A stretch of 64,000 nt of DNA. It comes from Candidatus Pacearchaeota archaeon (lineage in GTDB: Archaea > Nanobdellota > Nanobdellia > Pacearchaeales > GW2011-AR1). Position numbers and translations under genes: made by a program. Positions within the stretch are counted from its first letter, which is position 1; every line of letters begins with the position of its first letter. This document shows, one piece after another, positions 10,657 through 61,832 of the stretch. The stretch spans positions 295-64,294 of the forward strand of contig JAGVXO010000007.1 of NCBI GenBank assembly GCA_018303755.1, given 5' to 3'. Under the pieces are notes generated by a model that saw nothing but the letters and a program-made list of their open reading frames with translations, ran no database searches and was not told the origin of the DNA.

Positions 10657-11856
10657 ATGGTCCAAAGGAAAATTCTGAAAAACGGAATGACTGTGCTTTT
10701 TAAGAAGAAAAGAGGAGGAGTTGTAAGTGTTGCTTTTGCTGTTAGAAACGGCGGAAGAAATGAGGTTGCTAAGGAAAAAGGAATATCTCATTTTATTGAG
10801 CATATGCTTTACAAAGGTACGCCAAAAAGGAACAGCATGCAGATTTCAGCAGAGATTGAGAAAAATGGAGGGGAGCTAAACGGATTTACGAGCGAGAGGA
10901 TGACGGCTTTCTGGTGCAAGATGCCGAGCAGGCATATTAAGGTTGCTCTTGATGTTTTAAGTGATATGGTGAAAAATCCGCTTTTTGATGAAAATGAATT
11001 GAATAAAGAGCGGAAGGTTATTTTTGAAGAAATGAAATTATACCACGATACACCAAGCAGGTATACTGCTGAAAAAATAAAATCTTTGATGTATAGAGGA
11101 GATTTTTCAGTTCCAATCATAGGCACAGAAAGCTCAATGAATTCTATTTCCAGAAAAAAACTTACTGAATTCTTTAAAAAAGTTTATGCCAGCGAGAACA
11201 TGATTCTTTGTGTTGTCGGAGATACAGATTTTAGAAAAGTATGCAGTTTTGCAGAAAATAATTTTATCAAAAAAAGCGGGAAAGTTGCAAAGCCAAAAAT
11301 AATCCTTTCAAATAGTAAACAAATAGAGAGAAGAAATGGAATTGACCAGGCGAATCTTGTTTTTGCCCACCATATTCCTCTTCCAAATAAAAAAGGATAT
11401 TATTCTGCACAGGTATTGAATATGATTATGGCCGGCGGCATGTCTTCAAGGCTTTTTTCAGAAATACGCGAGAAAAGAAATCTTGCATATTCTATAAGAG
11501 GAGAGACAGATTCAGAGGGAGAGTATGCTTATAGTCTTATTGCTGTTGGAACTCCTCCAGAAAATGTTCAAAAAATTGAAAGGCTGATAGTTGAAGAGTT
11601 TAAGAAAGTCTCTGAAAAGCTTTCAGAAAAAGAGCTGTCAGAAGTTAAGGAGCAAATTATCGGGAATTATCTGATTTATCAGGAAGATTCTTTTAATGTT
11701 CTTGCAAATTTGCTTATGGAAGAGATAAAAGGGAATGCGCTTAATGCTGAGAAGTTCATTGACAATATAAAGAAAGTGAAACTAAGTGAAGTTAAAAAAC
11801 TTGCAAAAATTAAAAAATATAGTTTTTTTGCGCTTGTGCCTGATAAGCACAAGTAA
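10657..11856 (+). CDS. M16B (pitrilysin/insulinase family) zinc peptidase
   Basis: GISHFIEHMLYKGT, NGFTS, GGMSSRLFSEIREKRNLAY. Confidence 0.93.
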   Translation: MVQRKILKNGMTVLFKKKRGGVVSVAFAVRNGGRNEVAKEKGISHFIEHMLYKGTPKRNSMQISAEIEKNGGELNGFTSERMTAFWCKMPSRHIKVALDVLSDMVKNPLFDENELNKERKVIFEEMKLYHDTPSRYTAEKIKSLMYRGDFSVPIIGTESSMNSISRKKLTEFFKKVYASENMILCVVGDTDFRKVCSFAENNFIKKSGKVAKPKIILSNSKQIERRNGIDQANLVFAHHIPLPNKKGYYSAQVLNMIMAGGMSSRLFSEIREKRNLAYSIRGETDSEGEYAYSLIAVGTPPENVQKIERLIVEEFKKVSEKLSEKELSEVKEQIIGNYLIYQEDSFNVLANLLMEEIKGNALNAEKFIDNIKKVKLSEVKKLAKIKKYSFFALVPDKHK

Positions 11857-11914
11857 ATTTGTCCTATTTTTAATGAACCAAAAGGTTTAAACTTGTTCTT
11901 GTATATGTGCTTCT

Positions 11915-12154
11915 ATGGCAATTAAGAATATCTCTATAACTAAAGAGGCATATAGCAGGCCTGCTCGTCTTAAAAAGAACAAGGAACGTTTTTCAGAAAT
12001 TATAGTAAAGATTACCCGAAAAACGAGATTAGAAGATTTTTTTGGAATTTTGTCTAAAGATGCAGGCAGAAAATTAGGAGAGAATATACTTTTTTTAAAA
12101 ACAGAAAGAATAAGAGAATATCAAAAACGACACAAGAAATATAATTCATTTTGA
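11915..12154 (+). CDS. archaeal VapB-type antitoxin (orphan)
   Basis: KNISITKEAYSR..RLKK..ERFSEII...LEDFFGILS; no adjacent PIN toxin. Confidence 0.7.
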   Translation: MAIKNISITKEAYSRPARLKKNKERFSEIIVKITRKTRLEDFFGILSKDAGRKLGENILFLKTERIREYQKRHKKYNSF

Positions 12155-12192
12155 GAAAATAAACGGATTAAAAATTGAAGGATATTAAATAT

Positions 12193-12561
12193 TCATTTAT
12201 TCGCATCAGTCAATCCGATTATTCCACCAATTAATGCAAGGATTCCTATAATATTTCCGATTCCAATTACTCCTATGATTATTGCCCAGATTGCGCCGTT
12301 TCTGGCAGTTTTGGCATTAAGCATTTTTCTTGATGAAATCAGCAGAATACATCCGATAAGAATGATTACTAGAGAAATTAATATGCCCAAGATAAATATG
12401 GCTATTGGAAGAAAGGGATGAGAAACTTCTGCATTCGGAAGTTTTCTTATATAATTAATAAATAATGAAATTACCAGGGCTACAAAGAGAACTATTCCTG
12501 CAATTACAAAATTAATAATTGCAGCGATTTTTGTCAGCGAAGCACCTGTTTCGCTTTTCAT
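12193..12561 (-). CDS. small membrane protein (DUF4064-like)
   Basis: 3-4 hydrophobic helices, GILALIGGIIG end. Confidence 0.6.
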   Translation of the reverse strand: MKSETGASLTKIAAIINFVIAGIVLFVALVISLFINYIRKLPNAEVSHPFLPIAIFILGILISLVIILIGCILLISSRKMLNAKTARNGAIWAIIIGVIGIGNIIGILALIGGIIGLTDANK

Positions 12562-15037: not shown

Positions 15038-15087
15038 TTTTTTAAGAAGGGTTATGCCTTTTTATCTTTAACTGCACTTTTTATTTT

Positions 15088-15260
15088 TTAAACATCCCCA
15101 TAACTTTTCCTTATTTTACATCTTTTCATTAAAGTTTTCTTTTTTATTTAATATCTCATTAAAAATCATAAAGTCTAATGAACAAATGGACGACAGATTT
15201 GCAGAATTAGATAAGTGAGCGGAGCGAACCAAATTAAGGCGAGCCCGAATGGGCGAGCCG
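15088..15260 (+). repeat. family A repeat
   Basis: left and right blocks plus GTGAGCGGAGCGAAC and GGCGAGCCCGAATGGGCGAGCC; closely similar to 28295-28432. Confidence 0.85.
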
Positions 15261-16616: not shown

Positions 16617-19600
16617 TTATATTAATTTTTTTTGTATTTCTTCTTCATCTTTTTTATTTTCGTCTGCGCTTTTTCCTTCACTTTCTATTTCTTCATCCTG
16701 CGCTTTTGCATTAAATGTTCCGTCCTGCATTTCCTGTTTTATTGAGCTTATGGCGTTGTGCATTCTTTTTTCCTTGTGATAAGCGGCCCAGTAATATGCT
16801 TCGTCTCTTGTGTCTTTTGTTATAAGCATTATCAACTCTCCTGGCATTAATCTTGCTGTTCTTCCTGCTCTCTGAATTTTTCTTATTGCGCTTGGAACTG
16901 GCTCGTAAAAAATAACTGTATCAACTTCAGGTATATCAAGCCCCTCTTCTCCTATCTGGGTGCTGACTAAGACATTGAATTTTCCGTCGGAAAAGTCAGA
17001 GATTATTTCTCTTTGCTCTTTTTGGCTTAGTCCTGTATCTCCTTTTTTTGCCTGCCCTACAAAAACTTTTGCACTTGCATTTTCAATCGAATTAATTTCC
17101 TTGCATATTTTTGTCACGCTGTCACGATACTGCGAAAAAACAATTATTTTCGGGTTTTTGATTGAGCTTATTTTTGATTCTATAATTGCTTTTAGCTGAA
17201 GAAGTTTCGGATGCTCTAAATTTTCATTTATCATCTGCTTTATTTTTTCATATGCAATTGTAAAATCAGGATTGCTGACAAGCTTTTTTACAGCTCTGCT
17301 TTTATTCTGCCTTGCCTGTTCATTCAGAGATTCAATATAATTATTTAATCCATAAAGTGTTTGGGTTTCAAGAAGTTCAATTGCATGTCCGATTTTTATT
17401 GCCTGTGCGCATAATGACGCTCCATAGAACAAATTAAAATTTTTACTTCCTCTTGAAATCATAGCCATTATTCTTTTCTGGCAGTCTAACAAAGCGATTT
17501 TGTTTGCGGGCCCATTAAGGATATTTTTTTCTTTAAGCGAATTTATGTTTTTATCATAAATGTTTTTCAAATGAACTTTAATTTCTTTGAATTTTTGCGG
17601 AAATTCCACTTTTATTGTGTTTATGTCAAGTTCCTGCAAATATTCTTTCAAGTCTTCGCTTTCTCGTGTTCTTATTTCAACTTCTTCAATATTCAGATTT
17701 TCACAAATGAGTTTTATTGACTTTTTGTCTGCGCCAGGCGAGGCAGTAAGTCCCAAAATCCTCGCATTTTTCGCCTGCTCGATATACTTTTTCGCAACAT
17801 AAGTGTAGCTGTAATTTTTCACGCATTTATGCGCTTCGTCTTCTATAAGCAGAGAAACTCCTTCTAAATCATATAGTTTTTTCTTTAAATCATTGGCAAT
17901 GCAATTATGGTTTACTAAATAATTTGCTATAAAATTATGGTGTTTATCAACGCTTAAATCATACACTTCTCTTTTTTCTCGACACCCTCTTTTTTCTTTA
18001 ATCTTCACCCACCTTATTGGAAGGTTGAGAAGTTCTTTCAATTTATTGGCACTTTCTCCCTCTAAACAAGAGGATAGCTTTTTTAAATTATCCAAGGACA
18101 GGCAACTAAATTTATAATATTCTGCTTTGCTCATATTAGACTTATGAATTTTTTTCATTAATTCTGGAATAGGCAGTATTTCTTTTGAGCGTGTTTCTGG
18201 TCTTTTTGTATTGTTTAAGGTTTCTATTAGTTTTTTACATTTTTCTTTGTTTGGAGAGGACTCAAGAAATTTTTTTAAATTCAGCCTTCCTGTGAATTTG
18301 AATGTAAAAATTTCAGATTCTTTTAAATGTCTTCCATTTATCGTTCCATGAGATTTTGTTTTTTCAATATTGCCAAGAATGCCTATTCTTAAAAATAGCC
18401 ACTTTAGTCCCTGCACAAATTTTTCGCTTACACTGGATATTGATACTCCGTATTTTGATGCATGGCCATCTGTGTCAAATATTCCTTTGATAAATCCATT
18501 TATAGAATCTTTATCTGCGAAAAATAAAAATTTTGGAATTTCAATTCTTCTTGCTTTTTTTCCTTTTGGGATTCCAAGATGCGAGAAGAAATGTGCGAGA
18601 GCAGAGTTATAAGCAATAAGCCCTTTAGTTTTATCTTTCTTCATTTCAATTCCAAAAACTTCTTTAACTGCCTCTTTAAATTCTTGAGAGATTGATTCTC
18701 TTTCTAATTCTGAGAGGACCACTTCAGACCCATGACCTATCCTATCTCCAATATGTCCATCACCAAACATCGCACCTAAGATATATGCTAATTTATTGTC
18801 TAACTTTTTAGGGAGCTTTATTGGAGAACTTTTTCCGCAGCTATCTGTAAGTGTCAATAAGCTATAATCAAAATCTATTTTTTTTGATAGTTCTAGGAAA
18901 AGTTTTATGGGCATGAAGTTATAAAAATATCTTGAATAAGGCGAGGTTTTAATTTTCTTCTCTTTTAACTTCTTTATTAAGTCTTTTGTAAGAGCAGTAT
19001 CTGCTATTTTTAAACATTCACTCGAAGAGAGGAGATTTAAAATGTCGAGATTTTTTTCTTCTATATCTATCTTCTTTGAAGATGCAATGTAATCTCCTTT
19101 ATTTAGGCTTGACGCTTCCTTCCAAATTAATTCTCCACATGGGCTTATTGTTAAAAGAGGGTGGTCTTTTGTACACAAGAGGGTATTTCCTATTTCGGTT
19201 TTTATATTAATTACTTCTTCGGTTGTCCTTTTCCATGCTTTTGTTGCCTTTAAGAAATCAATTTTTTGCCCATTGTAACCCAGAATTTTTTCATTTATCT
19301 CAGCGACTTCTATTTTTCCATTTAGATAGTTCTTTTCTTCGAAATTAAATTGTTTGAAGAAATCTGAAATTTTTATCGGACCTTCTCCAGTGAATATTAA
19401 TGTTCCGCCATCAATGCACTGCGGAGTTGAAAATATAATGTCTGTTCTCTGCCATATTTTTTTTCTTTTTTCTGCATCAACTTTTCCTGTAAAAAGCTCC
19501 ATTTGAGCAAACAGCTCTGGAAGATATTTTTTAAAATAAGCAATATGCTGTTCTGCGAGCGGGCGTGTTGGAGCAAGAAAAAGAATTTTCTCCTCTGGAA

Positions 19601-19760
19601 ATTTCTGCATCCTATGTATTGTGAGAAGCAATGCAACAAGAGTTTTTCCTATGCCTGTAGGCAGGACTACTAAACAGTTTTTTTCTTTGCATTTTTCAAA
19701 TATCTTTTTTTGATATTCTCTTGGATTTATATCTTTTAAAAATTTCTCTTCTGGCATCAT
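16617..19760 (-). CDS. hef: Hef/MPH1-like SF2 helicase (no fused nuclease) with an intein
   Basis: PREYQ, LPTGIGKT, LAPTRPL, DEAH, LTASPG, EEGLDIP, IQRAGRTAR. Confidence 0.93.
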   Translation of the reverse strand: MMPEEKFLKDINPREYQKKIFEKCKEKNCLVVLPTGIGKTLVALLLTIHRMQKFPEEKILFLAPTRPLAEQHIAYFKKYLPELFAQMELFTGKVDAEKRKKIWQRTDIIFSTPQCIDGGTLIFTGEGPIKISDFFKQFNFEEKNYLNGKIEVAEINEKILGYNGQKIDFLKATKAWKRTTEEVINIKTEIGNTLLCTKDHPLLTISPCGELIWKEASSLNKGDYIASSKKIDIEEKNLDILNLLSSSECLKIADTALTKDLIKKLKEKKIKTSPYSRYFYNFMPIKLFLELSKKIDFDYSLLTLTDSCGKSSPIKLPKKLDNKLAYILGAMFGDGHIGDRIGHGSEVVLSELERESISQEFKEAVKEVFGIEMKKDKTKGLIAYNSALAHFFSHLGIPKGKKARRIEIPKFLFFADKDSINGFIKGIFDTDGHASKYGVSISSVSEKFVQGLKWLFLRIGILGNIEKTKSHGTINGRHLKESEIFTFKFTGRLNLKKFLESSPNKEKCKKLIETLNNTKRPETRSKEILPIPELMKKIHKSNMSKAEYYKFSCLSLDNLKKLSSCLEGESANKLKELLNLPIRWVKIKEKRGCREKREVYDLSVDKHHNFIANYLVNHNCIANDLKKKLYDLEGVSLLIEDEAHKCVKNYSYTYVAKKYIEQAKNARILGLTASPGADKKSIKLICENLNIEEVEIRTRESEDLKEYLQELDINTIKVEFPQKFKEIKVHLKNIYDKNINSLKEKNILNGPANKIALLDCQKRIMAMISRGSKNFNLFYGASLCAQAIKIGHAIELLETQTLYGLNNYIESLNEQARQNKSRAVKKLVSNPDFTIAYEKIKQMINENLEHPKLLQLKAIIESKISSIKNPKIIVFSQYRDSVTKICKEINSIENASAKVFVGQAKKGDTGLSQKEQREIISDFSDGKFNVLVSTQIGEEGLDIPEVDTVIFYEPVPSAIRKIQRAGRTARLMPGELIMLITKDTRDEAYYWAAYHKEKRMHNAISSIKQEMQDGTFNAKAQDEEIESEGKSADENKKDEEEIQKKLI
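17904..19418 (-). mobile_element. intein (505 aa) with LAGLIDADG endonuclease in the Hef helicase
   Basis: STPQ|CIDGGT...TKDHP...LGAMFGDG...IKGIFDTDG...VYDLSV...NHN|CIAND. Confidence 0.92.
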
Positions 19761-22978: not shown

Positions 22979-23632
22979 ATGGGAATAATAAACGAGATAA
23001 CCTTGAGCATAATAAAAAATGCTGAAGATGGAGAGAGCATTCACAGCTTGGCCTCTAAATTGGGATTTGCTTATTCAGCAGTGTACAGATGGATTTTGGA
23101 ATTAGAAAAATACGGAGTAATTGGTTTAATAAGAAATGGAAATAGGGATGTTATTAAGATTAATGAGAATTTAATATATAAAAAGTTTAAAGAGTTGGAT
23201 GGGGCTGTTTCTGTTATTGAAAAAGACAATAATTTTTGGGAGTTGGTTAAAACTTTAAAATTGAAAATAAGGTTTGTAAAGGGAACAGCCGCAGTTATCT
23301 GGACTCAGGGAAGTTTTATAACAGGAGACTTTTATGATAGAATTTATTTCTTGGAAGTTGAAAAGAAAGATGCTGATAGTTTAAAGAATGCTTTAAGGGA
23401 AAATGGAATTGCATATACTAGAGGAGAGATTAACAACAAAAGGCCTTTGATTTGGATTATCCAAAAACAAAGTTTTAAGACAGAAAGAAGAGAAGGCTTG
23501 CCTGTTATGCCTTTAAGAGAATTAGTAAAATGGGGAAAAGAATTGCATTTGGAAAATATTTTGGAACATTTGGATATTTTATATAATTTGAAATTAAATG
23601 TCAGATATTCGGAGGTTTTAACAAATGTTTAA
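22979..23632 (+). CDS. wHTH protein, AbiEi-like antitoxin partner
   Basis: ESIHSLASKLGFAYSAVYRWILELEKYG HTH; overlaps an NTase gene. Confidence 0.65.
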   Translation: MGIINEITLSIIKNAEDGESIHSLASKLGFAYSAVYRWILELEKYGVIGLIRNGNRDVIKINENLIYKKFKELDGAVSVIEKDNNFWELVKTLKLKIRFVKGTAAVIWTQGSFITGDFYDRIYFLEVEKKDADSLKNALRENGIAYTRGEINNKRPLIWIIQKQSFKTERREGLPVMPLRELVKWGKELHLENILEHLDILYNLKLNVRYSEVLTNV

Positions 23633-24326
23633 AATGGATTCAAGAGCAGGTTTGCTTGAAAGAGAACAGGAGATTATAAAATTGCTTAATTTATTTTTGG
23701 ATAAAGAATTAGAGTTTATTGTTGTCGGAGGATATGCGGTTTCAACGTATAAAAAAAGATTCTCAATAGATTTGGATATCGTAATTCGCGAGGATAATTT
23801 TCTTCAATTTGAAAAAATATTAGAAAAAGAGGGTTTTGCTTTGCATTATGAAAAGAAAATTGCCCTGCTTTATGGAGAGAATTTTAAAAGATTTACAAAA
23901 AAGATGAAAAATTTGCCTGTTGATATTGATTTGTTAGTTAATGGGCTAGTTTCGCGAACAACAGATGCAAGTTGGGGATTTGATCATATCAGAAGAAATT
24001 CTATAAAAAGAAAGTTAAATGAATCCGAATTTTTAACTCCAGAAAAAGAGCTGCTTATTGCAATGAAATTTCATAGCGGAAGATTATCCGACATTCGGGA
24101 TATTGTTGCATTGATGCCCTGCAACAAAGAAAAACTTAAAGCTCATTTGTTAAAAGGGGATCTCAGCAAACTTAAACAATCTATGAAAAATCAAACATCT
24201 CTTCTAAATAACTCTCAATTTGATGATAGCTTTAAAGGGATATTTGGGCCATTTTCATATAATAATGAAGTTGTACAAGCAACTAAGGAGCTAATTGAAG
24301 GTATTTTAAAAGAAATGGATAAATAG
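23625..24326 (+). CDS. nucleotidyltransferase (AbiEii/pol-beta superfamily)
   Basis: VVGGYAV...RFSIDLD...IDLL...LIAMK..SGRLSDIRD. Confidence 0.8.
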   Translation: MFKMDSRAGLLEREQEIIKLLNLFLDKELEFIVVGGYAVSTYKKRFSIDLDIVIREDNFLQFEKILEKEGFALHYEKKIALLYGENFKRFTKKMKNLPVDIDLLVNGLVSRTTDASWGFDHIRRNSIKRKLNESEFLTPEKELLIAMKFHSGRLSDIRDIVALMPCNKEKLKAHLLKGDLSKLKQSMKNQTSLLNNSQFDDSFKGIFGPFSYNNEVVQATKELIEGILKEMDK

Positions 24327-24342
24327 AAGTATTTTGTTAATC

Positions 24343-25200
24343 TTATTTTCTTCTCGTGCTTTTTGTTTGCACTTCTCTCGCACCATCTATCAATGGATTA
24401 ATAACTTTTCTAAATCCATCCTGCATCTGCCTCATTTCTGTTTTTATGTCCCCTATGTTCTGTTCTTGCTCAGATGCTTTTCTTATTAGTGATGCCTGCA
24501 AAGAATCTATTATTGATTCTATTTTTTCAAGGCGCGAATTTAGTTTTTCAAGTTGCGCAGATGCCATAATTTTAAATTCTGAAACATCTTTTACGGATTT
24601 TGACATCTTGGATGTTTTTTCTTCAATCAGCTGATTTGCAACTTCACTTATTGTTTCTGTGCTTGCTTGAGAATATCCTGCTCCGTACTCTGTTCCATAT
24701 TGCCCATTATTTTGTTCATATTGACCATACTCTGCTGTTTGAGGAATTGTCTGCGGGGCATATTGTTCTGGTTGTTGATTCCAGTATTGCGGCTCTTGCT
24801 GCTGAGGCATTTGTTGAGGAGGATATGCTTGTTGCTGTGGTTGAGCAGTATATTGTTCGTATTGTTCTTGCTGAGGAGGATATTGCTCTTGAGGTATTGT
24901 TTGTTGGCCATATTGCTCTTGTTGTCCTTGTTGCTCAAATTCTGTTTGCTGAAAATTTGATTGTTGTTTTGGAGTCATTATTGATGTTTCCATACCTTCA
25001 GTAATCATTGAATCTTCTTCATATTCCTTACTATTATCTCCTACTGCCTGTTTTATGCTTGACTGCGCCATTGCTTCATTTATATCTCTCGGAGATATTC
25101 CTTTTTCTTGAAGTGAGCGTATTACATCACTGTTTGAGTATCCCTGCTGTTTCATTATTTTTATTATATCTAGTGTTGCCATTATACTTTTCCTGCCCAA
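24343..25200 (-). CDS. Q/P/Y-rich linker coiled-coil protein
   Basis: small N-terminal helical domain, QEQYPPQ-type repeats, C-terminal coiled coil ending VINPL. Confidence 0.75.
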   Translation of the reverse strand: MGRKSIMATLDIIKIMKQQGYSNSDVIRSLQEKGISPRDINEAMAQSSIKQAVGDNSKEYEEDSMITEGMETSIMTPKQQSNFQQTEFEQQGQQEQYGQQTIPQEQYPPQQEQYEQYTAQPQQQAYPPQQMPQQQEPQYWNQQPEQYAPQTIPQTAEYGQYEQNNGQYGTEYGAGYSQASTETISEVANQLIEEKTSKMSKSVKDVSEFKIMASAQLEKLNSRLEKIESIIDSLQASLIRKASEQEQNIGDIKTEMRQMQDGFRKVINPLIDGAREVQTKSTRRK

Positions 25201-25696: not shown

Positions 25697-25960
25697 GCTC
25701 GCTTCGCTCGCCTTTTTATTTTTCAAATTTGTTAATCTATTGATACATTGGTTTTCAGGAATTTAATTTGTATTAATAATAAAATAATAAATTTTTAATA
25801 CTCGTGAAAAATCTCCAATCTTTAGATTGGAGTTAAAGTGTATAGATTTTTCCCGGTTCTCCCAAAACCCAAACACAAACTTCACACTTTAGTGTAGAGT
25901 ATCCTCAAATGGTTTTGTGATTAAACAGATATTAAATAAGAGAAAGTTATTAGATGTTAG
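25697..25960 (-). repeat. family A repeat interrupted by a family B element
   Basis: minus strand CTAACATCTAATAACTTTCTCTTATTTAATATC...CCAATGTATCAATAGATTAACAAATTTG...GCGAGCGAAGCGAGC. Confidence 0.8.
25800..25922 (+). mobile_element. family B non-autonomous IS200/IS605-like element
   Basis: TTAAT|ACTCGTGAAAAAT-CTCCAATCTTTAGATTGGAG ... CACACTTTAGTGT-AGAGTATCCTCAA; near-identical to 45017-45139. Confidence 0.8.
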
Positions 25961-28285: not shown

Positions 28286-28294
28286 ATCTTATTT

Positions 28295-28463
28295 TTAAAC
28301 ATCCCATAATTTTGCCTTATTTTTACATCTTTTCATTGAAGTCTTCTTTTTTATTTAATATCCCATTAAAAATCATAAAGTCTAATGAACAAATAGACGA
28401 CAGATTTGCAGAATAAAACAAGCGCGAAGCGCACTAATGTCGTTATTAATGTGAGCGAGCGAA
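28295..28463 (+). repeat. family A repeat
   Basis: close to 15088-15210; GCGCGAAGCGC mini-hairpin, then GTGAGCGAGCGAA. Confidence 0.85.
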
Positions 28464-28507
28464 AGATTTAAATATCCATATACTTCTATATGATAAGGTG
28501 TATAAAT

Positions 28508-29095
28508 ATGTATGAAAATAAATATAAAAATGAGCCTCTTACGAGATTAGAAGATTTAGATATTCTTTTAAATCTTTTGGCAGATTTAAATGAGCCGTTG
28601 GAATTGTTTGCAATAGGAGGAACTGCAATGGTTTTAAAAAGAATTAAAGAATCTACAAAGGATATAGATTTTTTGACTGCTGAAAAATATGAGAAAATTA
28701 AAAAGCTATTTACTTTAGCAGGTTTAAAAGAAGAAAGTTCTAATAAACTTTGTAACATTTGGAAATTAGGCAATATTCGGATAGATATTTTTTATGATGG
28801 TTTTATTATGGGCATAAGATTTCCTGATGATTGGAGAAAGTTATCTGAAAAAGTAAAAGAAATTGGAAAAATTAAGCTATATATTCTTAATTGGTATGAT
28901 TTGATTATCACGAAAATTTCAAGGGCTGAGAAAAGAGATATTGAAGATATAATTGCAATAATAAAAAGCCAAAAGTTAGATTTTGGTTTTTTGAAAAAGA
29001 GATATTATTCTTTTGCCGAAACTGCACTTATTTCAGATTTTGATTATAAATTTAAACATTTGGAAAGGGAATATGCCAAGCGCAAAATTGATTAA
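28508..29095 (+). CDS. DUF6036-like nucleotidyltransferase
   Basis: AIGGTAM...STKDIDF...RIDIF...DLIITKISR...DIEDI. Confidence 0.8.
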   Translation: MYENKYKNEPLTRLEDLDILLNLLADLNEPLELFAIGGTAMVLKRIKESTKDIDFLTAEKYEKIKKLFTLAGLKEESSNKLCNIWKLGNIRIDIFYDGFIMGIRFPDDWRKLSEKVKEIGKIKLYILNWYDLIITKISRAEKRDIEDIIAIIKSQKLDFGFLKKRYYSFAETALISDFDYKFKHLEREYAKRKID

Positions 29096-29693
29096 GGCAC
29101 TTGAAAAAGAAGGCTTTTTTTTGGAGTTTCCAGAATATTATTCAAATGAAGAAATTGTTTTTGAGATATTAAAGGAGGACAATCCGAGAATAACTCTCTG
29201 CCTGCCGCTTTTTTTAAGAAAAGGAATAGATTACAAAACGATTTCCTCGAAATTAAATCCCAAAAAGAAAAAAGAATTAAATAGGGCAATTGCTATCAGT
29301 GATAAAATCTACAAAAAAGAAAAAATTGAGAATACTCTTTCAGGCATTATAAAACAAAATAGAATAAAAGTAAACTTCTCAGAACAGGAATTCAAAGAGT
29401 TTTATGATTCTTTTAAAGAGAGTCGAGCAAGATTAAAAGAAAATGAACAAAAAATTATTGAAAAGCAGTCTAAACTGCGGCTTAATCTTGATTTAAACAA
29501 ATGCATGTCTGTTTTATTTTCTCCAGCAAAGATAAAAATAATGGAGAAAATATTCAATCATAAACTGCTTACGAATACAGAATTAAAGTATTATTATAAA
29601 TCCATTTCAAATATAAACAAGGCAGTTTTAAATCCAAATTTGCAGGATTATTTAAGGATAATTGAGATTACGAAGAAGATTGCGGAGAAATGA
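29073..29693 (+). CDS. hypothetical partner of the NTase (C-terminal HTH-like region)
   Basis: overlaps the NTase; LFSPAKIKIMEK...LTNTELKYYY. Confidence 0.65.
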   Translation: MPSAKLIKALEKEGFFLEFPEYYSNEEIVFEILKEDNPRITLCLPLFLRKGIDYKTISSKLNPKKKKELNRAIAISDKIYKKEKIENTLSGIIKQNRIKVNFSEQEFKEFYDSFKESRARLKENEQKIIEKQSKLRLNLDLNKCMSVLFSPAKIKIMEKIFNHKLLTNTELKYYYKSISNINKAVLNPNLQDYLRIIEITKKIAEK

Positions 29694-29710
29694 GCGAGCT
29701 AAATTAATTA

Positions 29711-29879
29711 TTCTAACATCCTATAATTTTGCCTTATTTTAAGTTTGTTCATTGGTGCTTTTTATTTATTGATTTAAAACATAATGTAAATTCCAATCTG
29801 CTCACGGGTTTAGGATTTACAAAATAAATAAGTGAGCGAAGCGAACCAAAATTGTGGGGCGAGCCCGCAGGGCGAGCCG
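29711..29879 (+). repeat. family A repeat
   Basis: CTAACATCCTATAATTTTGCCTTATTTTAAGTTTGTTCAT...GTGAGCGAAGCGAAC...GGCGAGCCCGCAGGGCGAGCC. Confidence 0.85.
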
Positions 29880-29951
29880 ATAATTCCATTATTCAAATAA
29901 AAAATCACAACCGAAATATTTATAACTCCCCCCCCCTTGGATTGTTAATCT
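29870..29951 (+). promoter_or_regulatory. duplicated promoter block with TATA box and poly-C tract
   Basis: copy of 15251-15330 with C9 instead of C7. Confidence 0.7.
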
Positions 29952-30024
29952 TTCAATAAGTTTTTAACACGAAAAAGAAAGATTGAACTAAAATAAAAAA
30001 TAGTGATTGAAAGGAGGTGATAAA

Positions 30025-30831
30025 ATGAATAGAAATTTAGTGATTGGACTTTCTGTTACTTTAGTTGCTGTTTTAATTGCAGGAAGCTTGAGCGGATGGT
30101 TTGGATTGACTGGAAACGTAATTTGGGGAAGTTCTCCCTATGCTGATAAGATTGCAAAATTAGGGAAAACATATACTCTAAATTTAGAAGGGAGTAGTCA
30201 TACATTTTTAGTTACCGATTATCAGAGAGAAAATTCTACTTCTGTAGGGTTTATCTGGTTAAATGTGGATGGAGAACTAAAAAAGGTAAGTTATGGGACA
30301 TCTGCTGTTAGATTTTGGGATAATATTGACGTGCAGATTTTACAGTTTTACAATTGGGCAGGAAGTTTTGTTCAAATAAGGTTTTTTTATCTTTACCCTG
30401 AATATACTGATATGAATGATTGTAGGTGGGAATATAATACTTATGATAATGAGTATCTCCCAGAATCTCGGGCGGTAATTTGCAGATATGGTGAAGAAGT
30501 ATTAGTCTCAACCGAATTTGTCACTTGTGATACTCCAAGGTTGGTTGAAACATGGAACTATTGGTGGCCTGGATTTAAAGGTGCACCAACCTTTGGAAGA
30601 GGGTATACTTGTTATGACTCTTCTTCAAATACTGTTTTTAAGCCAGGGTATGTATCTGGAGTATGTTGTAAAGTAAGAAGTACAAATGGATCTCCAGGAG
30701 TAATCTCTTCATTGAAGTCTGGTGCTGAAAATGGAGAAATCTTGGCAAAGGTAAATCAATTGACTTCAGATAATAAAATAATAGAAAGAGATTTAACTTC
30801 TGAAGAAATAGAAGTGACTTTATCTGCTTAA
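30025..30831 (+). CDS. secreted/surface protein (TGN-motif signal anchor, Cys-rich)
   Basis: same TGAAAGGAGGTGATAAAATG start as the 15386 gene; TM then LTGNVI; GVCC. Confidence 0.75.
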   Translation: MNRNLVIGLSVTLVAVLIAGSLSGWFGLTGNVIWGSSPYADKIAKLGKTYTLNLEGSSHTFLVTDYQRENSTSVGFIWLNVDGELKKVSYGTSAVRFWDNIDVQILQFYNWAGSFVQIRFFYLYPEYTDMNDCRWEYNTYDNEYLPESRAVICRYGEEVLVSTEFVTCDTPRLVETWNYWWPGFKGAPTFGRGYTCYDSSSNTVFKPGYVSGVCCKVRSTNGSPGVISSLKSGAENGEILAKVNQLTSDNKIIERDLTSEEIEVTLSA

Positions 30832-30928
30832 GCAATTTATTTTTTATTTTCTTTTTATTTTCTTTTTTCAATACCTTTATTAATTCTTTTTTTCTTATTT
30901 CTATAAGGAATAAGTGAAAGAGGGAATA

Positions 30929-33130: not shown

Positions 33131-33148
33131 TTTTTTCTGTTATTTTCT

Positions 33149-33536
33149 TTAAACACACTATAACTTTTCCTTATTTAACATCTTTTCATCTCACTTTTTT
33201 CTTAATATTATTAAAACAATCCAAAGGACAAATGTATCAATGGAGTCAGATTTGCAGAATAAAATAGGCGAGGCGAAGCCGAGCACAATATTTATTTTGT
33301 TAATATCCAATAATTTTCCCACATTTTACATCTTTTTAATTGCCTTTTTATTTTTTTAATTAGATTTTGATTTAATGCATTTAAACTTTATAAAAACCAA
33401 TGTATCAACGGATTAGGGGTTAGCAGAATAAAACGCGCGCCCGCAGGCGCGCGTTATCTCTCTATTAAACGAGCGAGGCGGAGCCGAGCGAAAATCGTGG
33501 GGTCGCAGGGCGAGCGAACCGAAGGTGAGCGAGCCG
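33149..33536 (+). repeat. two tandem family A units with a cluster of GA/GNA hairpins
   Basis: units at ~33149 and ~33299; GCGAGGCGAAGCCGAGC, GCGCGCCCGCAGGCGCGC, GGCGAGCGAACCGAAGGTGAGCGAGCC. Confidence 0.88.
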
Positions 33537-45374: not shown

Positions 45375-46440
45375 TAGCATAAGACATTAATTATTCCCCA
45401 AGATTTATATACCCCTTATCTTTGTTTATTGGGAGGTAAAAATATGAACAATAAACAAATAGAATTTCTTAAGAAAGCTTATAAAAAAGAAAGAGATGCA
45501 AAAATAATAAAGAGAATTCTTATGATAATTTACACACTTCAAAAAGAAACTTTAAGAGAGATAGGTGAAAGACTTCATTGTGACCATAAACTTGTACTTT
45601 ATTGGAAAAGGAGATATGAAAAAGAAGGCTTAGAAGGTCTTAAAACAAGACCCAAAAGTGGAAAGCCGAGAAAGATTTCACGACGACAAGAAGCAAATTT
45701 AAAAAGAATCTTTTCTAAAGAAAATCCAGATAAACCTTGGACAACAAAAAGAGCTTTAGTATTAATTGCAGAAAAAACAGGTGTAGATTATTCACAACGT
45801 CAGACAACGAGAATTTTAAATCGCTGGAATTTTGGTCTCTCTACGGGTAGACCAATTTATTGGCATAAAGCTTCAGAGGAAGAAATAGCAAAATTCGGAA
45901 AAAAAAATTTGGTATTACAAAGATAAATATCCAAATCATCCATTATTTTGTGAAGATGAATCAACATTCCTTTATGATTCAATTTCCAGGAAAGTTTGGG
46001 TAGTAAAAGGCAGAGAATATAGACGATTAGTGACAGGTTCTCATAAGAAAGTACATGCATATGGCTTTCTTTCTGAAAATGGTAAAAAGATGTTTACATT
46101 AAGAAAAAACATGAATGCTGAAGAATTTGTTAAAGTTTTATCTAAATTCTTACACAAATTCAAAAGAGCAATACTAATTTTGGATAAGGCTCCTTGGCAT
46201 AAAAAGTCAAAGAAAGTTCAAAAATATTTGAAGGAACATCGACGAGAATTAAAGATAATTTGGTTTCCATCCGGATGCCCTGAAATGAATCCTGTTGAAG
46301 AATGTTGGAGACAAGCCAAAGGAGAAGTTAATGGTGGTAGAATTCATGAAAGTTTTGAAAGGATGGTGAAAGAACTAAGATATTTTATGAAATATACTGA
46401 ATTCAGGCAGAATATGGGGAAATACTTACGTCCTTAGCCA
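45375..46440 (+). mobile_element. IS630-family insertion sequence
   Basis: TA at 45373-74 and 46441-42; imperfect ~26 bp TIRs (TAGCATAAGACATTAATTATTCCCCA / TGGCTAAGGACGTAAGTATTTCCCCA). Confidence 0.88.
45444..46437 (+). CDS. IS630 transposase in two frames (HTH ORF 45444-45926 plus DDE ORF), joined at an A9 run
   Basis: HTH ...W.RRY..EG.EGL.TRPKSGKP; frame 2 FCEDES...ILDKAPWH...PEMNPVEECW. Confidence 0.88.
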
Positions 46441-50399: not shown

Positions 50400-50519
50400 G
50401 TTAATTCTATATCTTTATGCTTTATAAAGTTTTCTTTGTTTTTGGGCGTTTTTGGTTTTATCAATCAAAGATTTTCAAATGAATCAATGTACTTGCAAGT
50501 AGAGCGCAATATTTATTTT

Positions 50520-50911
50520 GCTAACATACCATAACTTTCCATTATTTTAAGTTTGTTCATTGGTGCTTTTTTTAATATCTCTCAGTTAAATCTCAGAAGA
50601 ACAAATGAATCAATTGGCGTAAGATTTGAGAAATAGATAAGTGAGTGAAGCGAACCAAAATAAAGCGAGCCCGAAGGGCGAGCGATTGCACGAGCTAAAA
50701 AAAGTTGATACAATGAGTGCAATCGTGAGCAGAGCACAATATTTATTTTATTAACATCCCATTCTTTTTACTTATTTTAAGTTTGTTCATGGGTGTTTTT
50801 TATTTAAGGCATGTAAATTTCAATCTGCTCATGGAAAAGGATTAGCAGAATAAAATAAGCGCGAAGCGCGAACCATTAATTGCACTTATGGCGAGCCCGC
50901 AGGCGAGCGAG
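50520..50911 (+). repeat. two tandem family A units with a module C hairpin
   Basis: units at ~50520 and ~50751; GCGAGCCCGAAGGGCGAGC; CGATTGCAC-GA...GA-GTGCAATCG. Confidence 0.88.
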
Positions 50912-55308: not shown

Positions 55309-55592
55309 GCTCTGCTCGCGATTGCACTAATTGTATATTCTTCTTTGGCTTGTGTAATTGCTCGCCTGCTACTCGCGATTGCACTCATTATATCTCCTTC
55401 ATTAGCTCGTGCAATCGCTCGCCCTTCGGGCTCGCTATAAATGTACTTAATGGCTCGGCTTCGCCTCGCTTATTTTATTTTGCAAATCCCACTTCATGAG
55501 CACATTGATTATTGGGTGCTTTTAATTGATAATGTAAAAAAGAAAAGATAAATGAAAAGAGGTAAAATGCAGGAAAGGAATGGCATGTTTAA
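55309..55592 (-). repeat. family A repeat with two tandem module C hairpins
   Basis: minus strand TAAACATGCCATTCCTTTCC...GGATTTGCAAAATAAAATAAGCGAGGCGAAGCCGAGC...GCGAGCCCGAAGGGCGAGCGATTGCAC. Confidence 0.85.
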
Positions 55593-55599
55593 AAAATAA

Positions 55600-57582: not shown

Positions 57583-57751
57583 GGTGCGCTTCGCGCACTT
57601 ATCAAATATTCTGCAAATCTGCTAATCCGCGGATACATTGATTCTTTATATTTTTAAAAGGATATTTAATTAAAATATGGGATAATTAAAATTAAAATAA
57701 TAAAACTTCAATAAAAAGATGTTAAATAAGGGAAAAGAATGGGATGTTAGA
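57583..57751 (-). repeat. family A repeat
   Basis: minus strand CTAACATCCCATTCTTTTCCCTTATTTAACATC...CAATGTATCCGCGGATTAGCAGATTTGCAGAA...GTGCGCGAAGCGCAC. Confidence 0.85.
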
Positions 57752-57833: not shown

Positions 57834-60800
57834 ATGGCTAAGGATAAAGAAGAGGAAGTTAAAGAAGCGGTTTCTGATGAAGGCAAAGGATTAAATGACT
57901 TGCCTGGAATAGGGCCTGCGGCAATTGCAAAGCTCGAGGCAGCAGGGGTATTTGATTTAATGGGTGTTGCAACAATGAGCCCGCCAATGCTTTCTGAAAT
58001 AAGCGGACTTGGAGAAGCAGTTGCAAGAAAGGCAATTCAGGCATCAAGAAAAATGCTTGATTTGGGATTTATGGACGCTTCTGAATTTGAGAAAAAACGC
58101 CTTGATATTCATCACATTACAACTGGCTCAAAAAATATTGATAATCTTCTTGGTGGAAAGGGAGTTGAGAGCAAGGCGATAACTGAACTATTTGGTGCTT
58201 TTGGCAGCGGGAAATGTGTGAGTAAAGATACAGAGGTTTGTTATTTTAATGATACAAGGATGCATGTTGAACAGATACAAGAAACTTATGAAAAATATAA
58301 AAAATTCAATGAAGAGTGTTTAGTTGATAGGGGTTATGCTGTGCCTGTTTCAACTGTAAAAGTATTGTCTTGGCATAATGGAATTTTAAGTGTTTTGAAA
58401 GCTTCCCACTTATATAAAGAAAAAGTTAATCAATTGTATATTATTAAAACAAGAAGAGGTAGAGTTCTTAAAACAACAGGAATGCATCAGATACTTAGTT
58501 TTGAAAATGGTGTTGCTTGGAAAAGAGTAGGATTGTTGAGCAAAGGAGATTTGATTGCCTCTCCAAAAGAAATTAGCATGATAACGGAAAATATTTATGA
58601 TGAAGATGACGCTTATTTTTTGGGATTATTTGTTGCAGAAGGCAGTTCAAATCCATTTTCAATTTCAATAAGTGAAAAAGAAATTAAAGATTGGTTGTGC
58701 AATTATATAACCAATAAATTTGGCTATTCTCCGACAGTCAGAGAAGACAGAAGACGAGAAAAAATTGTTTATCAAATACTATTAAGAAACAGCACAAAAA
58801 GAATTATGGACAATCTGGATAATTGCAATTCTTCCAATAAATTTATACCTGAAGGCATTTTTCTTTCATCAAAAGAAGTTGTTTTGTCATTTTTAGGGGG
58901 ATATTTAGATGGTGATGGTGAAGTTTCAAAAAGCGATATTTCTGCAACTACAAAAAGTATTAAACTTGCAACTCAATTGACTTATCTTTTTATGAGAATT
59001 GGAGTTTCTGCAAGTTTAAGAAATAGATTTGTTAATGGACAATTGTTTAAAATTATTCGGATTTCTGGAGAAGATAGAGAAAGGATGAAAGATGTGAAAT
59101 TTAAAATAAAAAGCTTTAATCCTAATATCTTAAATAGTTTTTATGGATATCCTAAAAAGATTATCGAGTTTATTTCTGATTTATACAAAGAAAGTATTGG
59201 GGGAAATAGAGGAAGGTTAAGAAAAGAATTTGGAAAAATAAGCGGCGGTTATGAACATAGGATTTTTACAAATTCCTCAACTCCATTTGTTATCAATACT
59301 AATACTCTAAATAAAATTGAGAAGGTTTTTATCAAACAGAAAGAAGAGTTTATTAAAATTATAAAATTATTAGAAGAAGAAAAATTTTCCACAGCATTCT
59401 TAAAAGAGATTTATCCAAAAATGCCCTTTGCTTTTAATAGTTTGGCTGAAAATATGGGGCTGAAGAAAAGCAGCATTCAAAATTATTACAGCAGAAAAAT
59501 TCCTGAAAATAAATCAGAGATTTTAAGAAATTTGATTTTAAATGAATTAAAAACAAGAGTCGATGTTATCTGTTTGGCTTTAGAAATGATTAGCGAGATA
59601 AGACTGTTTAATTGGGATGTTGTTGAAAGTATTGAGTTGGTGGATTATAATGATTTTGTGTATGATTTTGTTGTTCCAGAAGGGCATTCGTTTGTCGGAG
59701 GAAATATGCCTACAATGATGCATAATACTCAAATTGCACTTTCTCTTGCAGTTAATGTTCAGCTTCCTAAAGAAAACGGAGGAGCAAATGGAAAAGCAGT
59801 TTATATTGATACAGAAGGCACTTTTAGGCCAGAGAGAGTCAAGCAGTATGCTGCAGGAATCGGTGCAAATCCTGAAAAAGTGCTGAAAAATATCTTCGTA
59901 GCTCGCGCGTTTAATTCAGATCACCAGATTTTGCTTCTTGAAAAAATAAATGAAATGATTAAAGGTGGCGAACCTATTAAACTGCTGATTGTTGATTCTC
60001 TTACAGCGCATTTTAGGGCAGAGTATTCTGGAAGAGGACAGCTTGCAGACAGGCAGCAGAGATTAAATAGATATCTTCATGACTTAATGAAATTAGCAGA
60101 GCAGAGAAATCTTGCTGTGCTTGTTACAAATCAGGTTATGTCAAATCCTGCAATGATGTTTGGAGATCCAACAACTCCTATTGGCGGGAATATAGTCGGG
60201 CACGCATGTCTGACTGGAGACAGCTTAATTCAGCTTTCTGATGGAAGCATAAAACAAATTAAAACTATGCAACAAGAAAATGTGCTTTCAGGCAGTTTTA
60301 AAAATTTAAAAATTGAAAATGCTAAAAGTGAGAACTTGTTTATTAATAATAAAGTTGATAAGCTTTATAATATTAAGACAGATTGCCAGATTAATTGTTC
60401 TTCATTACACAGATTTTTTGCAATTGAAGATTTTAATGTTATTGAAAAAGAAGCTAAAGATTTAAAAGAAGGGGATTTTGTTGCGCAAGCAGGGAAAATT
60501 GAAGTGATTGGTGATGAACAAAAATTGCCTTTAGTCCATATCAAAAAAATAGCGAAACTCTCTGATGATTCTTCAAAACACTTAAAATTAGAGCTTGAAA
60601 AGGAAAATTCAACAAAAGAGGAAATTTGCAAAAAAATTGGCATAACAAAAAGGCAATTTAGAAGAGTTTTAAATCAGAGTTGGCCTACTTCTTGCGATGT
60701 TTTAAATAATCTGCAGGAGCATTTTTCTGGAAGATTGCAACTTCAAATGATTCCTGTTCAGACATATAAACATAGAGATTTAATAATTCCTGCTATGATG

Positions 60801-61832
60801 ACCACAGAATTTTCACAGATTTGTGGATATTTTATCGGAGATGGAAATTTTGAAGCAAGAGGGTTAAGATTTAAAGATGAGAGAATTGAAATTTTACAAA
60901 GTTATAATTCTTTATTTAAGGATATTTTTAATATAGTAGGAAGTATTACAAAGGTTAAAAATAAAAACTGCTATACTTTATATATTAATTCAAAAGAAAT
61001 TTCTGATTTCTTTAGACTTATTATCCCCGATGTTTTAGGCTATGTTGCAAAATCTAAAGATGAGGTAGTTGCAGGATTTATTAAGGGGTTTGTTGATGCT
61101 GAAGGGCACATTAACAAAGAAAGAGCGATGATAACTATTACTCAAAAGGAAAAAATGATCCTAAGGCATATTCAGATGTTTTTACTAAGGTTTGGTATAA
61201 GAGCAACTATTAAGTTTGATATTGGAATGAAGAAGATGAGCATTTTGAGGATTATTGGAAAGGATTGTTTGGATTATCTTCAGATTGGATTTACAGCTCA
61301 AGATAAACAGAAAGAGTTATTTAATTATAAGAGGCATTATTTGCGAACTTATTATAAAGAAATGATGCCTATGCAAAGAGAAGAGATTTGGAATTTATTA
61401 AAACAAGTTGGATTAAAATCCTCGCATTTTATGAAGCCAAGAGATAATAGTTATAAATGGGTAAATAGGAAGGAATTAGAAACGTGTTTTAAAGTTTTAA
61501 TGAATCAAAAAATAAATGACAGACAGATAAAACAAAAAATTGAGTTTATTTTTAAATTGATGAACGGCGATTTAAGGTTTGAAAAAATAAGAGAAATTAA
61601 AATTTCTGATAATATTAATAAAGAGTTGTTTTATGATTTCTCTGTTCCTTCTCATGAAAATTATATTGCTAACGGGTTTGTTGTGCATAATTCGACTTAC
61701 AGAATTTATCTTCGGAGAGGGAAGAAAGACACAAGGGTTGCAAAACTTATTGATTCTCCAAATCTTCCTGACAATGAAACTGTATTCATGGTTACAACTG
61801 ATGGATTAAAAGATGTTGTGCTGAAAGAGTAA
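57834..61832 (+). CDS. radA: DNA repair/recombination protein RadA with two inteins (333 aa after splicing)
   Basis: DLPGIGP HhH, GAFGSGK|T, YIDTEGTFRPER, VDSLTAHFRAEY.GRG.LA.RQQ, TNQV, RVAKLIDSP. Confidence 0.96.
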   Translation: MAKDKEEEVKEAVSDEGKGLNDLPGIGPAAIAKLEAAGVFDLMGVATMSPPMLSEISGLGEAVARKAIQASRKMLDLGFMDASEFEKKRLDIHHITTGSKNIDNLLGGKGVESKAITELFGAFGSGKCVSKDTEVCYFNDTRMHVEQIQETYEKYKKFNEECLVDRGYAVPVSTVKVLSWHNGILSVLKASHLYKEKVNQLYIIKTRRGRVLKTTGMHQILSFENGVAWKRVGLLSKGDLIASPKEISMITENIYDEDDAYFLGLFVAEGSSNPFSISISEKEIKDWLCNYITNKFGYSPTVREDRRREKIVYQILLRNSTKRIMDNLDNCNSSNKFIPEGIFLSSKEVVLSFLGGYLDGDGEVSKSDISATTKSIKLATQLTYLFMRIGVSASLRNRFVNGQLFKIIRISGEDRERMKDVKFKIKSFNPNILNSFYGYPKKIIEFISDLYKESIGGNRGRLRKEFGKISGGYEHRIFTNSSTPFVINTNTLNKIEKVFIKQKEEFIKIIKLLEEEKFSTAFLKEIYPKMPFAFNSLAENMGLKKSSIQNYYSRKIPENKSEILRNLILNELKTRVDVICLALEMISEIRLFNWDVVESIELVDYNDFVYDFVVPEGHSFVGGNMPTMMHNTQIALSLAVNVQLPKENGGANGKAVYIDTEGTFRPERVKQYAAGIGANPEKVLKNIFVARAFNSDHQILLLEKINEMIKGGEPIKLLIVDSLTAHFRAEYSGRGQLADRQQRLNRYLHDLMKLAEQRNLAVLVTNQVMSNPAMMFGDPTTPIGGNIVGHACLTGDSLIQLSDGSIKQIKTMQQENVLSGSFKNLKIENAKSENLFINNKVDKLYNIKTDCQINCSSLHRFFAIEDFNVIEKEAKDLKEGDFVAQAGKIEVIGDEQKLPLVHIKKIAKLSDDSSKHLKLELEKENSTKEEICKKIGITKRQFRRVLNQSWPTSCDVLNNLQEHFSGRLQLQMIPVQTYKHRDLIIPAMMTTEFSQICGYFIGDGNFEARGLRFKDERIEILQSYNSLFKDIFNIVGSITKVKNKNCYTLYINSKEISDFFRLIIPDVLGYVAKSKDEVVAGFIKGFVDAEGHINKERAMITITQKEKMILRHIQMFLLRFGIRATIKFDIGMKKMSILRIIGKDCLDYLQIGFTAQDKQKELFNYKRHYLRTYYKEMMPMQREEIWNLLKQVGLKSSHFMKPRDNSYKWVNRKELETCFKVLMNQKINDRQIKQKIEFIFKLMNGDLRFEKIREIKISDNINKELFYDFSVPSHENYIANGFVVHNSTYRIYLRRGKKDTRVAKLIDSPNLPDNETVFMVTTDGLKDVVLKE
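58215..59726 (+). mobile_element. RadA intein 1 (504 aa, LAGLIDADG) in the Walker A motif
   Basis: GSGK|CVSKDT...LGLFVAEG...LGGYLDGDG...VYDFVVP...MHN|TQ. Confidence 0.93.
60207..61691 (+). mobile_element. RadA intein 2 (495 aa, HTH plus LAGLIDADG)
   Basis: VGHA|CLTGDS...CGYFIGDG...IKGFVDAEG...FYDFSVP...VHN|STYRIY. Confidence 0.93.

Follow-up and report, generated by a model that had tools for sequence, protein, structure and literature searches.

Mini-hairpins that probably fold as single-stranded DNA in a dispersed intergenic repeat of a Pacearchaeota genome

A 64,000-nucleotide stretch of a Candidatus Pacearchaeota archaeon (GenBank assembly GCA_018303755.1, contig JAGVXO010000007.1, positions 295 to 64,294; hereafter the window) was analyzed for hairpins built from GNA triloops and tandem sheared G-A pairs, first noticed at window positions 33268-33535. 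This region is flanked by a TadC-like gene and a pilin-like gene, names which follow from position and sequence as Pfam gave no match. The hairpins were found not to be free-standing: they are the 3' modules (tails) of an intergenic repeat of about 145 nt, dispersed over the genome in both orientations. They very probably fold as single-stranded DNA and not as RNA. As to their role, the explanation we favor, at a probability of a little under 40%, is that they serve as strand markers of derived, dispersed recombination sites of the cassette (integron) type.

A dispersed repeat with hairpins of one polarity

The assembly examined (G000) comprises 769 kb in 36 contigs and is 82% complete; the window is its contig C9, and comparisons were made within a panel of 61 genomes (G-numbered). 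An iterated profile gave 230 matches over the genome, 153 of them full length, and none in the reversed genome. These define 167 repeat loci, about one per 4.6 kb, only four of which overlap called genes, and 58 of 59 clusters are arranged head to tail. Each copy follows the same plan of a conserved pyrimidine-rich head, an AT-rich body, a conserved 3' block and the hairpin tail. The AAC of the head is conserved at 0.94, 0.78 and 0.76 per position. Within the head lies an inner ATAA/TTAT symmetry around a 7-nt spacer, which may be compared with a dif-type Xer site, consisting of two 11-bp arms around a 6-bp spacer in which crossover occurs; no breakpoint was mapped in the head. Copies are old and diverged, and head, body and tail are unlinked among them, so that the copies are mosaic. 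A strict C(GNA)G hairpin is present at 85 of the 167 loci, and 116 of the 166 such hairpins in the genome fall within the 84 kb of repeat zones.

The five hairpins cited in the earlier note (33509-33535, 29832-29846, 15215-15229 and 50665-50683 on the plus strand, 25697-25711 on the minus strand) were all confirmed. In 152 repeat tails, GNA accounted for 81 of 103 triloops and GA/GA for 55 of 74 2x2 internal loops, while dinucleotide shuffles of the tails (five rounds) gave GNA in 6 of 91 triloops and every 2x2 type in at most 7 of 158. Across the 167 repeat zones, the repeat strand carried 145 GC-rich triloop hairpins, 113 of which had GNA loops (GAA 99, GGA 6, GTA 4, GCA 4) and comprised 45 distinct sequences. 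The loop was closed by a C-G pair in 107 of the 113, as in the known DNA mini-hairpin. The opposite strand held four GNA hairpins, none with tandem GA. The claim that the complementary strand cannot form these structures needs correction, since the Watson-Crick stems can still form there, as in the four inverted loops.

Stem variation was compensated, as had been claimed. The first hairpin switches in concert between a Watson-Crick and a tandem-GA form (31 CC, 16 AA, mixed forms 1 and 0; Fisher p 7.5e-12; four further tails with T left out of the count). On a tree of repeat bodies, drawn without a shuffled-label control, the GA form was scattered: 13 of the 40 copies had it and the form changed 12 times, so that the switch is in part module swapping rather than independent double mutation. 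A comparison of G-T with A-C wobbles (6 versus 3) was uninformative. All 134 tandem-GA strands in the repeats stood in a Py-GA-Pu context, as did 30 of 40 in the arrays of relatives described below. Because tandem GA in RNA often shows this context as well, it cannot separate DNA from RNA.

The polarity of the hairpins is fixed relative to the repeat, and not to genes or replichore. Repeat orientation over the four gene contexts was 55/38/36/29. The suggested check for strand bias relative to replichores gave no support, polarity following the repeat itself. In G005, a related genome with about 100 copies of a homologous family, orientation was regionally clustered (30/36 versus 14/45, p 0.002) yet unrelated to skew or to cdc6, and no replichore could be defined; the switch points match neither cdc6 (510 kb) nor any skew change. 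The G005 contig itself (C1:1-856651, 857 kb with overlapping ends) shows negative four-fold GC skew nearly throughout, with no switch.

These observations bear on the possibility that the hairpins are landing sites, free of single-strand-binding protein (SSB), for a primase or fork-restart factor, as at phage G4 origins and RSF1010 ssiA. SSB-resistant mini-hairpins do occur at the G4 origin and in ssiA (PMC13037366), and the density of repeat loci and the regional clustering in G005 are in keeping with such a role. The position of the G005 switch points and the absence of the dispersed family from most relatives (the head was matched in 6 of 21 genomes of the genus) speak against it, and we consider a priming role very unlikely.

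Probable folding as DNA rather than RNA

The central claim of the earlier note, that selection acts on single-stranded DNA of one polarity in its folded state, was supported by the strand count (113 versus 4), by the C-G closure and by loop type. When one counting rule, which scores possible rather than proven stems, was applied throughout, the repeat zones gave GNA in 66 of 154 triloops and GNRA in 8 of 102 tetraloops, while three 23S rRNAs, one of them from G000, gave GNA versus GNRA counts of 1 versus 4, 1 versus 5 and 1 versus 4. This preference of GNA over GNRA, the opposite of 23S rRNA, is therefore a signature of DNA rather than RNA. A general mutational bias toward GNA stems is less likely, as coding DNA showed no excess (34/1387 versus 560/21052; 34 observed versus 26.7 +/- 6.0 in synonymous shuffles).

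Energy models are undecided between DNA and RNA, and it is loop type that decides. With the DNA rules of ViennaRNA the gap between strands was 0-0.8 kcal/mol with no significant z-score, and RNA energy rules favored the same GA strand, by up to 4.2 kcal/mol. Strand asymmetry alone is thus no proof of DNA.

Mini-hairpins and tandem G-A pairs belong to textbook DNA chemistry, and natural examples of them are few. Among the 64 triloops GNA alone is reported to form the DNA mini-hairpin, the RNA version of its tetraloop form melts at 39.0 versus 76.5 C, and a double mini-hairpin is a poor SSB binder (PMC13037366). The building blocks of the hairpins found here, a C(GNA)G cap and Py-GA-Pu tandem sheared pairs, are identical to those of the d(GCGNAGC) mini-hairpins described at the phage G4 origin, RSF1010 ssiA and N4 promoters (PMC13037366) and of CGAG blocks (PMC10085684). 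Those described are, however, single sites whose partner proteins are known, whereas here more than 110 hairpins are spread over the copies of a chromosomal repeat for which no partner has been described.

The alternative in which the repeat acts as RNA, as a two-way terminator or 3'-end structure in which the T-rich head would act in one direction and the hairpin with a T-run in the opposite one, was weighed against these results. The T-rich head lies a median of 29 nt downstream of genes on its own strand, the repeat strand in G000 is sense more often than antisense where the neighboring genes are in tandem (55 versus 29, p 0.006), G005 copies favor convergent spacers (31 versus 7), RNA rules also fold the GA strand well, and a gene of the aCPSF1/FttA type is present. 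Against this, divergent spacers are as frequent as convergent ones in G000 (36 versus 38), G005 shows no sense bias (22 versus 20), the loops are triloops where the rRNA control has the opposite, and the other strand would present UC/UC loops. Judged by sequence, the repeat appears to have neither the GNRA/UNCG tetraloops of a structured RNA nor a fixed orientation to transcription, as an intrinsic terminator would, and it had no Rfam match; a search of the window against Rfam returned nothing at the gathering score and weak AT-rich matches only (E up to 5). We regard an RNA function of the repeat as quite unlikely. Such a role could still apply to the head, but it would not account for the hairpins.

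Hairpin-lined arrays beside XerA-type recombinases

The hairpins had been likened in concept to attC bottom strands, and this likeness was made concrete by arrays in related genomes. In G022 (C1:370945-397218; L054, L056), a 25-kb array comes after a 273-aa XerA-type gene; the unrelated genes of the array lie between folded sites, and 27 of its 27 hairpins are on the recombinase-coding strand. Among 30 loci of related recombinases, eight of which have less than 210 nt upstream, 16 carried upstream hairpins within 1.5 kb, 38 on the same strand and one on the opposite; none of 10 loci of the other XerA clade did so (different queries were used to retrieve the two recombinase sets, and their tree is unrooted). 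In longer upstream stretches (up to 19 kb, 20 loci, four without any hairpin) the recombinase-coding strand was favored by 97 to 12, and in 21 nearer stretches, including the G022 array, by 106 to 2.

The array sites have invariant AAC and GTT, a stem which covaries (10 of 15 pairs, 0 of 500 shuffles), a one-sided bulge of 2-3 nt and branched tips (integron-like arrays at L178-L227). A crude AAC...GTT scan was too noisy (83 versus 58). A covariance model built from 24 of 31 more strictly chosen candidate sites, five likely coding false positives and two long sites having been dropped, matched 26 of the 61 genomes. With respect to the enzyme, the G022 protein scored 179.5 bits against the TIGR02249 cut-off of 265, and thus does not class as IntI, while it exceeds the archaeal XerA cut-off. 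Across the insertion region it has about 42 residues fewer than PDB 2a3v, and it lacks the IntI insertion. As the sole PF00589 match in G022 it may also be the housekeeping copy.

The attC sites of bacterial and archaeal integrons likewise use one folded, purine-rich DNA strand, and attC bottom strands have a GAA tip (PMC5027507; bioRxiv 2022.02.06.479319 for the former). The arrays of the relatives share with integrons, as these sources describe them, the AAC...GTT core and cassettes beside a divergent tyrosine recombinase. They differ in the enzyme, of about 270 aa without the IntI insertion, and in sites with the one-sided bulge and branched tips.

The repeat as a candidate recombination site

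Since the same hairpins line integron-like arrays in relatives, they likely mark the strand that a recombinase would use. Both repeat and array sites begin with AAC-A-TC and end 3' in GNA hairpins, all on one strand, and hairpin cores common to the two occur in 62 of 86 copies, a likeness that may be convergent. The repeat is tied to the array sites by this order, by head-to-tail units, by mosaic copies and by shared hairpin cores, and not by a direct test. It is predicted to act like an attC bottom strand, yet it is outside the attC family.

If the favored explanation is correct, the marked strand would become single at replication or when negatively supercoiled DNA extrudes it; both gyrase subunits, A and B, are encoded in G000 (C29:595-3790, L458; B with an intein) and in G005. 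Folding would start from the C(GNA)G cap and the sheared GA pairs and give a structure that SSB melts poorly, while the complementary TTC/TC strand would remain unfolded. Cutting by a XerA-type tyrosine recombinase would follow near the AAC of the head, and gene-less units would spread to secondary sites and later be reshuffled. Isolated cassettes have been reported to be able to land outside att sites (bioRxiv 2022.09.11.507474).

A considerable number of observations weigh against reading the repeat as such a site. The covariance model of array sites found no match in G000 (best E 0.14), nor in G001, G005, G007 or G014. Head and tail did not covary in 113 copies, a copy's own partner being no better than a shuffled one, and the terminal inverted-repeat signal was not above shuffles in six species, which gives no support to the head as a terminal inverted repeat. 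Nor was there support for the head as an attI, as it had no match to recombinase-proximal sites. No crossover point could be mapped among repeat copies. The attC core RYYYAAC...GTTRRRY with paired R and L boxes was not found: the AAC of the head is conserved, the GTT and the long stem are not, and in place of a cassette array beside an IntI gene and attI the copies are dispersed in both orientations. There was no cargo bias (core genes 44 head-side versus 50 tail-side of 156, p 0.53), nor did synteny breaks show a cassette bias (25/44 versus 14/36, p 0.12). Compared with integron attC as described in PMC5027507, the G000 repeat thus differs in having no covarying long stem, conserved GTT, cargo bias or enzyme that we could find. 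No tyrosine recombinase (PF00589) was matched in the 82%-complete G000 assembly, and at E 1e-40 neither G001 nor G005 gave a XerA-like match. With the enzyme missing from its assembly, the system may be inactive in G000. In the G005 family, moreover, one internal hairpin faces the other strand.

The shared hairpin cores are also a weak link, possibly convergent, because the same design was found in other settings. The GNA/tandem-GA motif occurred in 52 viral contigs, with 35 further hairpins on the same strand and five on the opposite. The only reverse transcriptase found in G000 resembles that of a diversity-generating retroelement (DGR; C31:1-2294, L083), with similar motifs ahead of its two perfect C(GAA)G hairpins, and GNA hairpins lie inside the right-end hairpin of two stand-alone IS200-like Y1 genes (L078:~1420-1480, L079:~1410-1480).

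An extension of the favored explanation is that in this archaeal lineage a XerA-run integron-like system escaped its array and spread chromosome-wide. The roughly 170 strand-marked sites would then form one shufflable cassette field, and strand choice would depend on sheared G-A mini-hairpins in place of the IntI insertion and extrahelical bases; we hold this to be rather doubtful. If it is true, hairpins of this design would serve as a general code by which functional single-stranded DNA could be searched for in genomes. With respect to other candidates, scanning 87 of 112 proteins shared with G005 and without match in G022 (450 of 511 kb) gave none, and neither Y1, tyrosine recombinase, serine resolvase, GIY-YIG, ComEC nor DprA was found in the 82% of G000 covered by the assembly. 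Joints at repeats in four DNA sequencing runs resembled other copies and were not used.

Possible mobility by a nuclease, relics and uptake

A different account makes the repeat a non-autonomous element resembling repetitive extragenic palindromic (REP) sequences or miniature inverted-repeat transposable elements, moved as single-stranded DNA by a hairpin-reading HUH (Y1) or similar nuclease, with the integron likeness convergent. The many intergenic copies, head-to-tail clusters and empty sites in relatives would suit it, as would Y1 transposases in 21 of the 61 genomes, the GNA hairpins within the two IS200-like right ends and the failure of the repeat in the attC-like model. No Y1 (PF01797) was found, however, in G000, G005 or G010, all rich in such repeats, so that the HUH recognition site proposed in the earlier note has found no support so far. 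Furthermore, a strict hairpin was lacking within about 1.5 kb of 9 of the 12 Y1 loci, the copies are old and diverged, and the scan of shared proteins produced no candidate. The hallmark of a REP-associated tyrosine transposase (RAYT), a Y1 gene flanked by the repeats, was not seen in G000, and the Y1 loci of the relatives resemble IS200/IS605 elements. In five genomes no GIY-YIG protein scored above cut-off, hence no small nuclease gene of the Ssn type bracketed by the repeat. REP sequences and bacterial interspersed mosaic elements (BIMEs) with RAYT are similarly abundant intergenic hairpin repeats in clusters targeted by IS1111-type elements. Their clusters consist of alternating inverted copies, in contrast to the head-to-tail arrangement here, where no GTAG foot was noticed and no Y1 is in the assembly. 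Movement by such a nuclease seems to us rather improbable.

It is also conceivable that the hairpins are relics of mobility kept by gene conversion, the conserved head doing another job as a protein-binding or termination site. That barely half of the loci have a strict hairpin fits this idea, as do the many heads without a hairpin nearby in sampled stretches of G001, G007 and G014, the shuffled modules and the lack of an enzyme. Relics would not be expected to comprise 45 distinct compensated sequences with one mixed form in 48 and correct contexts throughout, nor would each related species be expected to have its own compensated hairpin versions, as is the case. We think this explanation unlikely.

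Copies of the repeat inside the pilus operon, and a genome-wide spread resembling that of uptake sequences, might suggest a tag for DNA imported via the type IV pilus. This earlier suggestion has so far gained nothing from the data: ComEC and DprA were absent from all five genomes searched, coding DNA was not enriched, and the operon copies are lineage-specific insertions. It is highly improbable.

Occurrence in relatives, viruses and other elements

The 13-nt tandem-GA motif was present in 23 of the 61 genomes. Conservation of the repeat head extends to G001, G005, G007 and G014; the ATPase genes of these four share 73-74% identity with that of G000. In G005, 19 of 19 close pairs were head to tail, which rules out an arrangement as outward inverted pairs. 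At a second Xer locus of G007 no repeat head was found upstream of the recombinase gene.

The site between the pilus ATPase and TadC-like genes (window 28286-30913) is variable, holding toxin-antitoxin-like or membrane genes that differ in most relatives. It is empty in L141 and L143, and direct repeats of the head enclose the cargo of L140. Most of the relatives inspected have a short spacer after the TadC-like gene.

A 25-nt hairpin pattern had no match in viral contigs, and a 21-nt pattern matched 79 loci in genome contigs, mostly named as bacteria of GC-rich groups. Viral contigs L102, L108, L119, L122 and L133 contain attC-looking sites with this tandem-GA GAA hairpin in their tips. The GRA-triloop hairpins of DGRs described in DPANN archaea (PMC4372165) are alike in loop and closing pair; in the account given there they are perfect stems beside the variable region, without tandem GA or a repeat body, unlike the G000 repeat. 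Tandem duplications resembling tRNA 3' ends, with one GNA hairpin per unit, were seen at L057:~11700-12300 (G010) and G005:C1:~419200-419450.

One repeat tail is interrupted by an IS1111-type element with an IS110-family gene and 13-bp subterminal repeats (G000 C20 ~23350-24670, L338). Two segments of its downstream non-coding region match the two flanks of the hairpin. In this one case, the empty site would read as a GAA-loop tandem-GA hairpin if two left-end bases are the shared core. Ten of 400 other genomes have homologues; those that were resolved sit at other targets, and none of the seven with both ends resolved lies in a GNA hairpin. Members of the IS1111 group are known to target attC and REP sites (PMC11187229), and the insertion is one further sign of the hairpin as a stable landmark.

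Features of the window

Repeat copies and hairpins are listed in Table 1. Archaeal genes seen in the analysis include those for RadA, EF-1beta, RPA and a pilus ATPase. LAGLIDADG-domain inteins were seen in RadA and a Hef-like helicase (window 57834-61832 and 16617-19760), along with a short fragment of an IS630-like transposase (45429-45926). No tRNA was found in the window, plasmid BLAST gave only short chance-level matches, and no close strain was present among 78 metagenome loci (best 68% identity).

Table 1. Repeat copies and hairpins located in the window.
Feature	Position	Strand	Basis
Repeat copy 1 of head-to-tail pair after TadC-like gene	33146..33284	+	profile match 33146-33276, E 3e-23
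C(GAA)G triloop hairpin, one tandem GA/GA	33268..33284	+	sequence read
Repeat copy 2, three-hairpin tail	33296..33535	+	profile match 33296-33446, E 6.5e-23; tail read from sequence
10-bp Watson-Crick stem, 4-nt CGCA loop (or GCA triloop with bulged C); not a strict triloop	33432..33455	+	sequence read; loop class counted
C(GGA)G triloop hairpin, one tandem GA/GA	33473..33489	+	sequence read
C(GAA)G triloop hairpin, two tandem GA/GA; longest type in genome	33509..33535	+	sequence read; cited in earlier note
Repeat copy ending in cited GGA-loop hairpin 15215-15229	15085..15229	+	
Partial repeat copy ending in cited GAA-loop hairpin 25711-25697	25697..25791	-	
Repeat copy with Watson-Crick C(GAA)G hairpin 28422-28432, at variable insertion site between pilus ATPase and TadC-like genes	28292..28434	+	
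Repeat copy with two tandem-GA hairpins (29832-29846, cited; 29858-29878)	29711..29878	+	
Head-to-tail pair: cited hairpin 50665-50683 and Watson-Crick hairpin 50859-50869	50517..50872	+	
Repeat copy with two tandem-GA hairpins (55453-55469, 55417-55435)	55417..55595	-	
Repeat copy with Watson-Crick C(GAA)G hairpin 57584-57598	57584..57751	-	

Significance

As far as we found, the literature describes neither this repeat nor XerA-type cassette arrays in DPANN nor tandem-GA mini-hairpins in such sites; subscription journals were largely outside this coverage, and the site tables of an archaeal integron paper could include some of the arrays. New here are the DNA-versus-RNA tests, the link between repeat and arrays, and the IS1111-type element with its hairpin-matching guide. 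For G000 alone the value of the finding is capped, as the function of the repeat is predicted and the enzyme was not found in the assembly. Beyond that genome, the repeat offers more than 110 natural recurrences of mini-hairpins with compensation and fixed polarity, and the same-genome rRNA control, which sets them apart from RNA structure, provides a usable sequence rule for telling single-stranded DNA motifs from RNA motifs. Hairpins on the recombinase strand of arrays without IntI suggest, in a form open to testing, how one folded strand could be chosen by a plain XerA-type enzyme.
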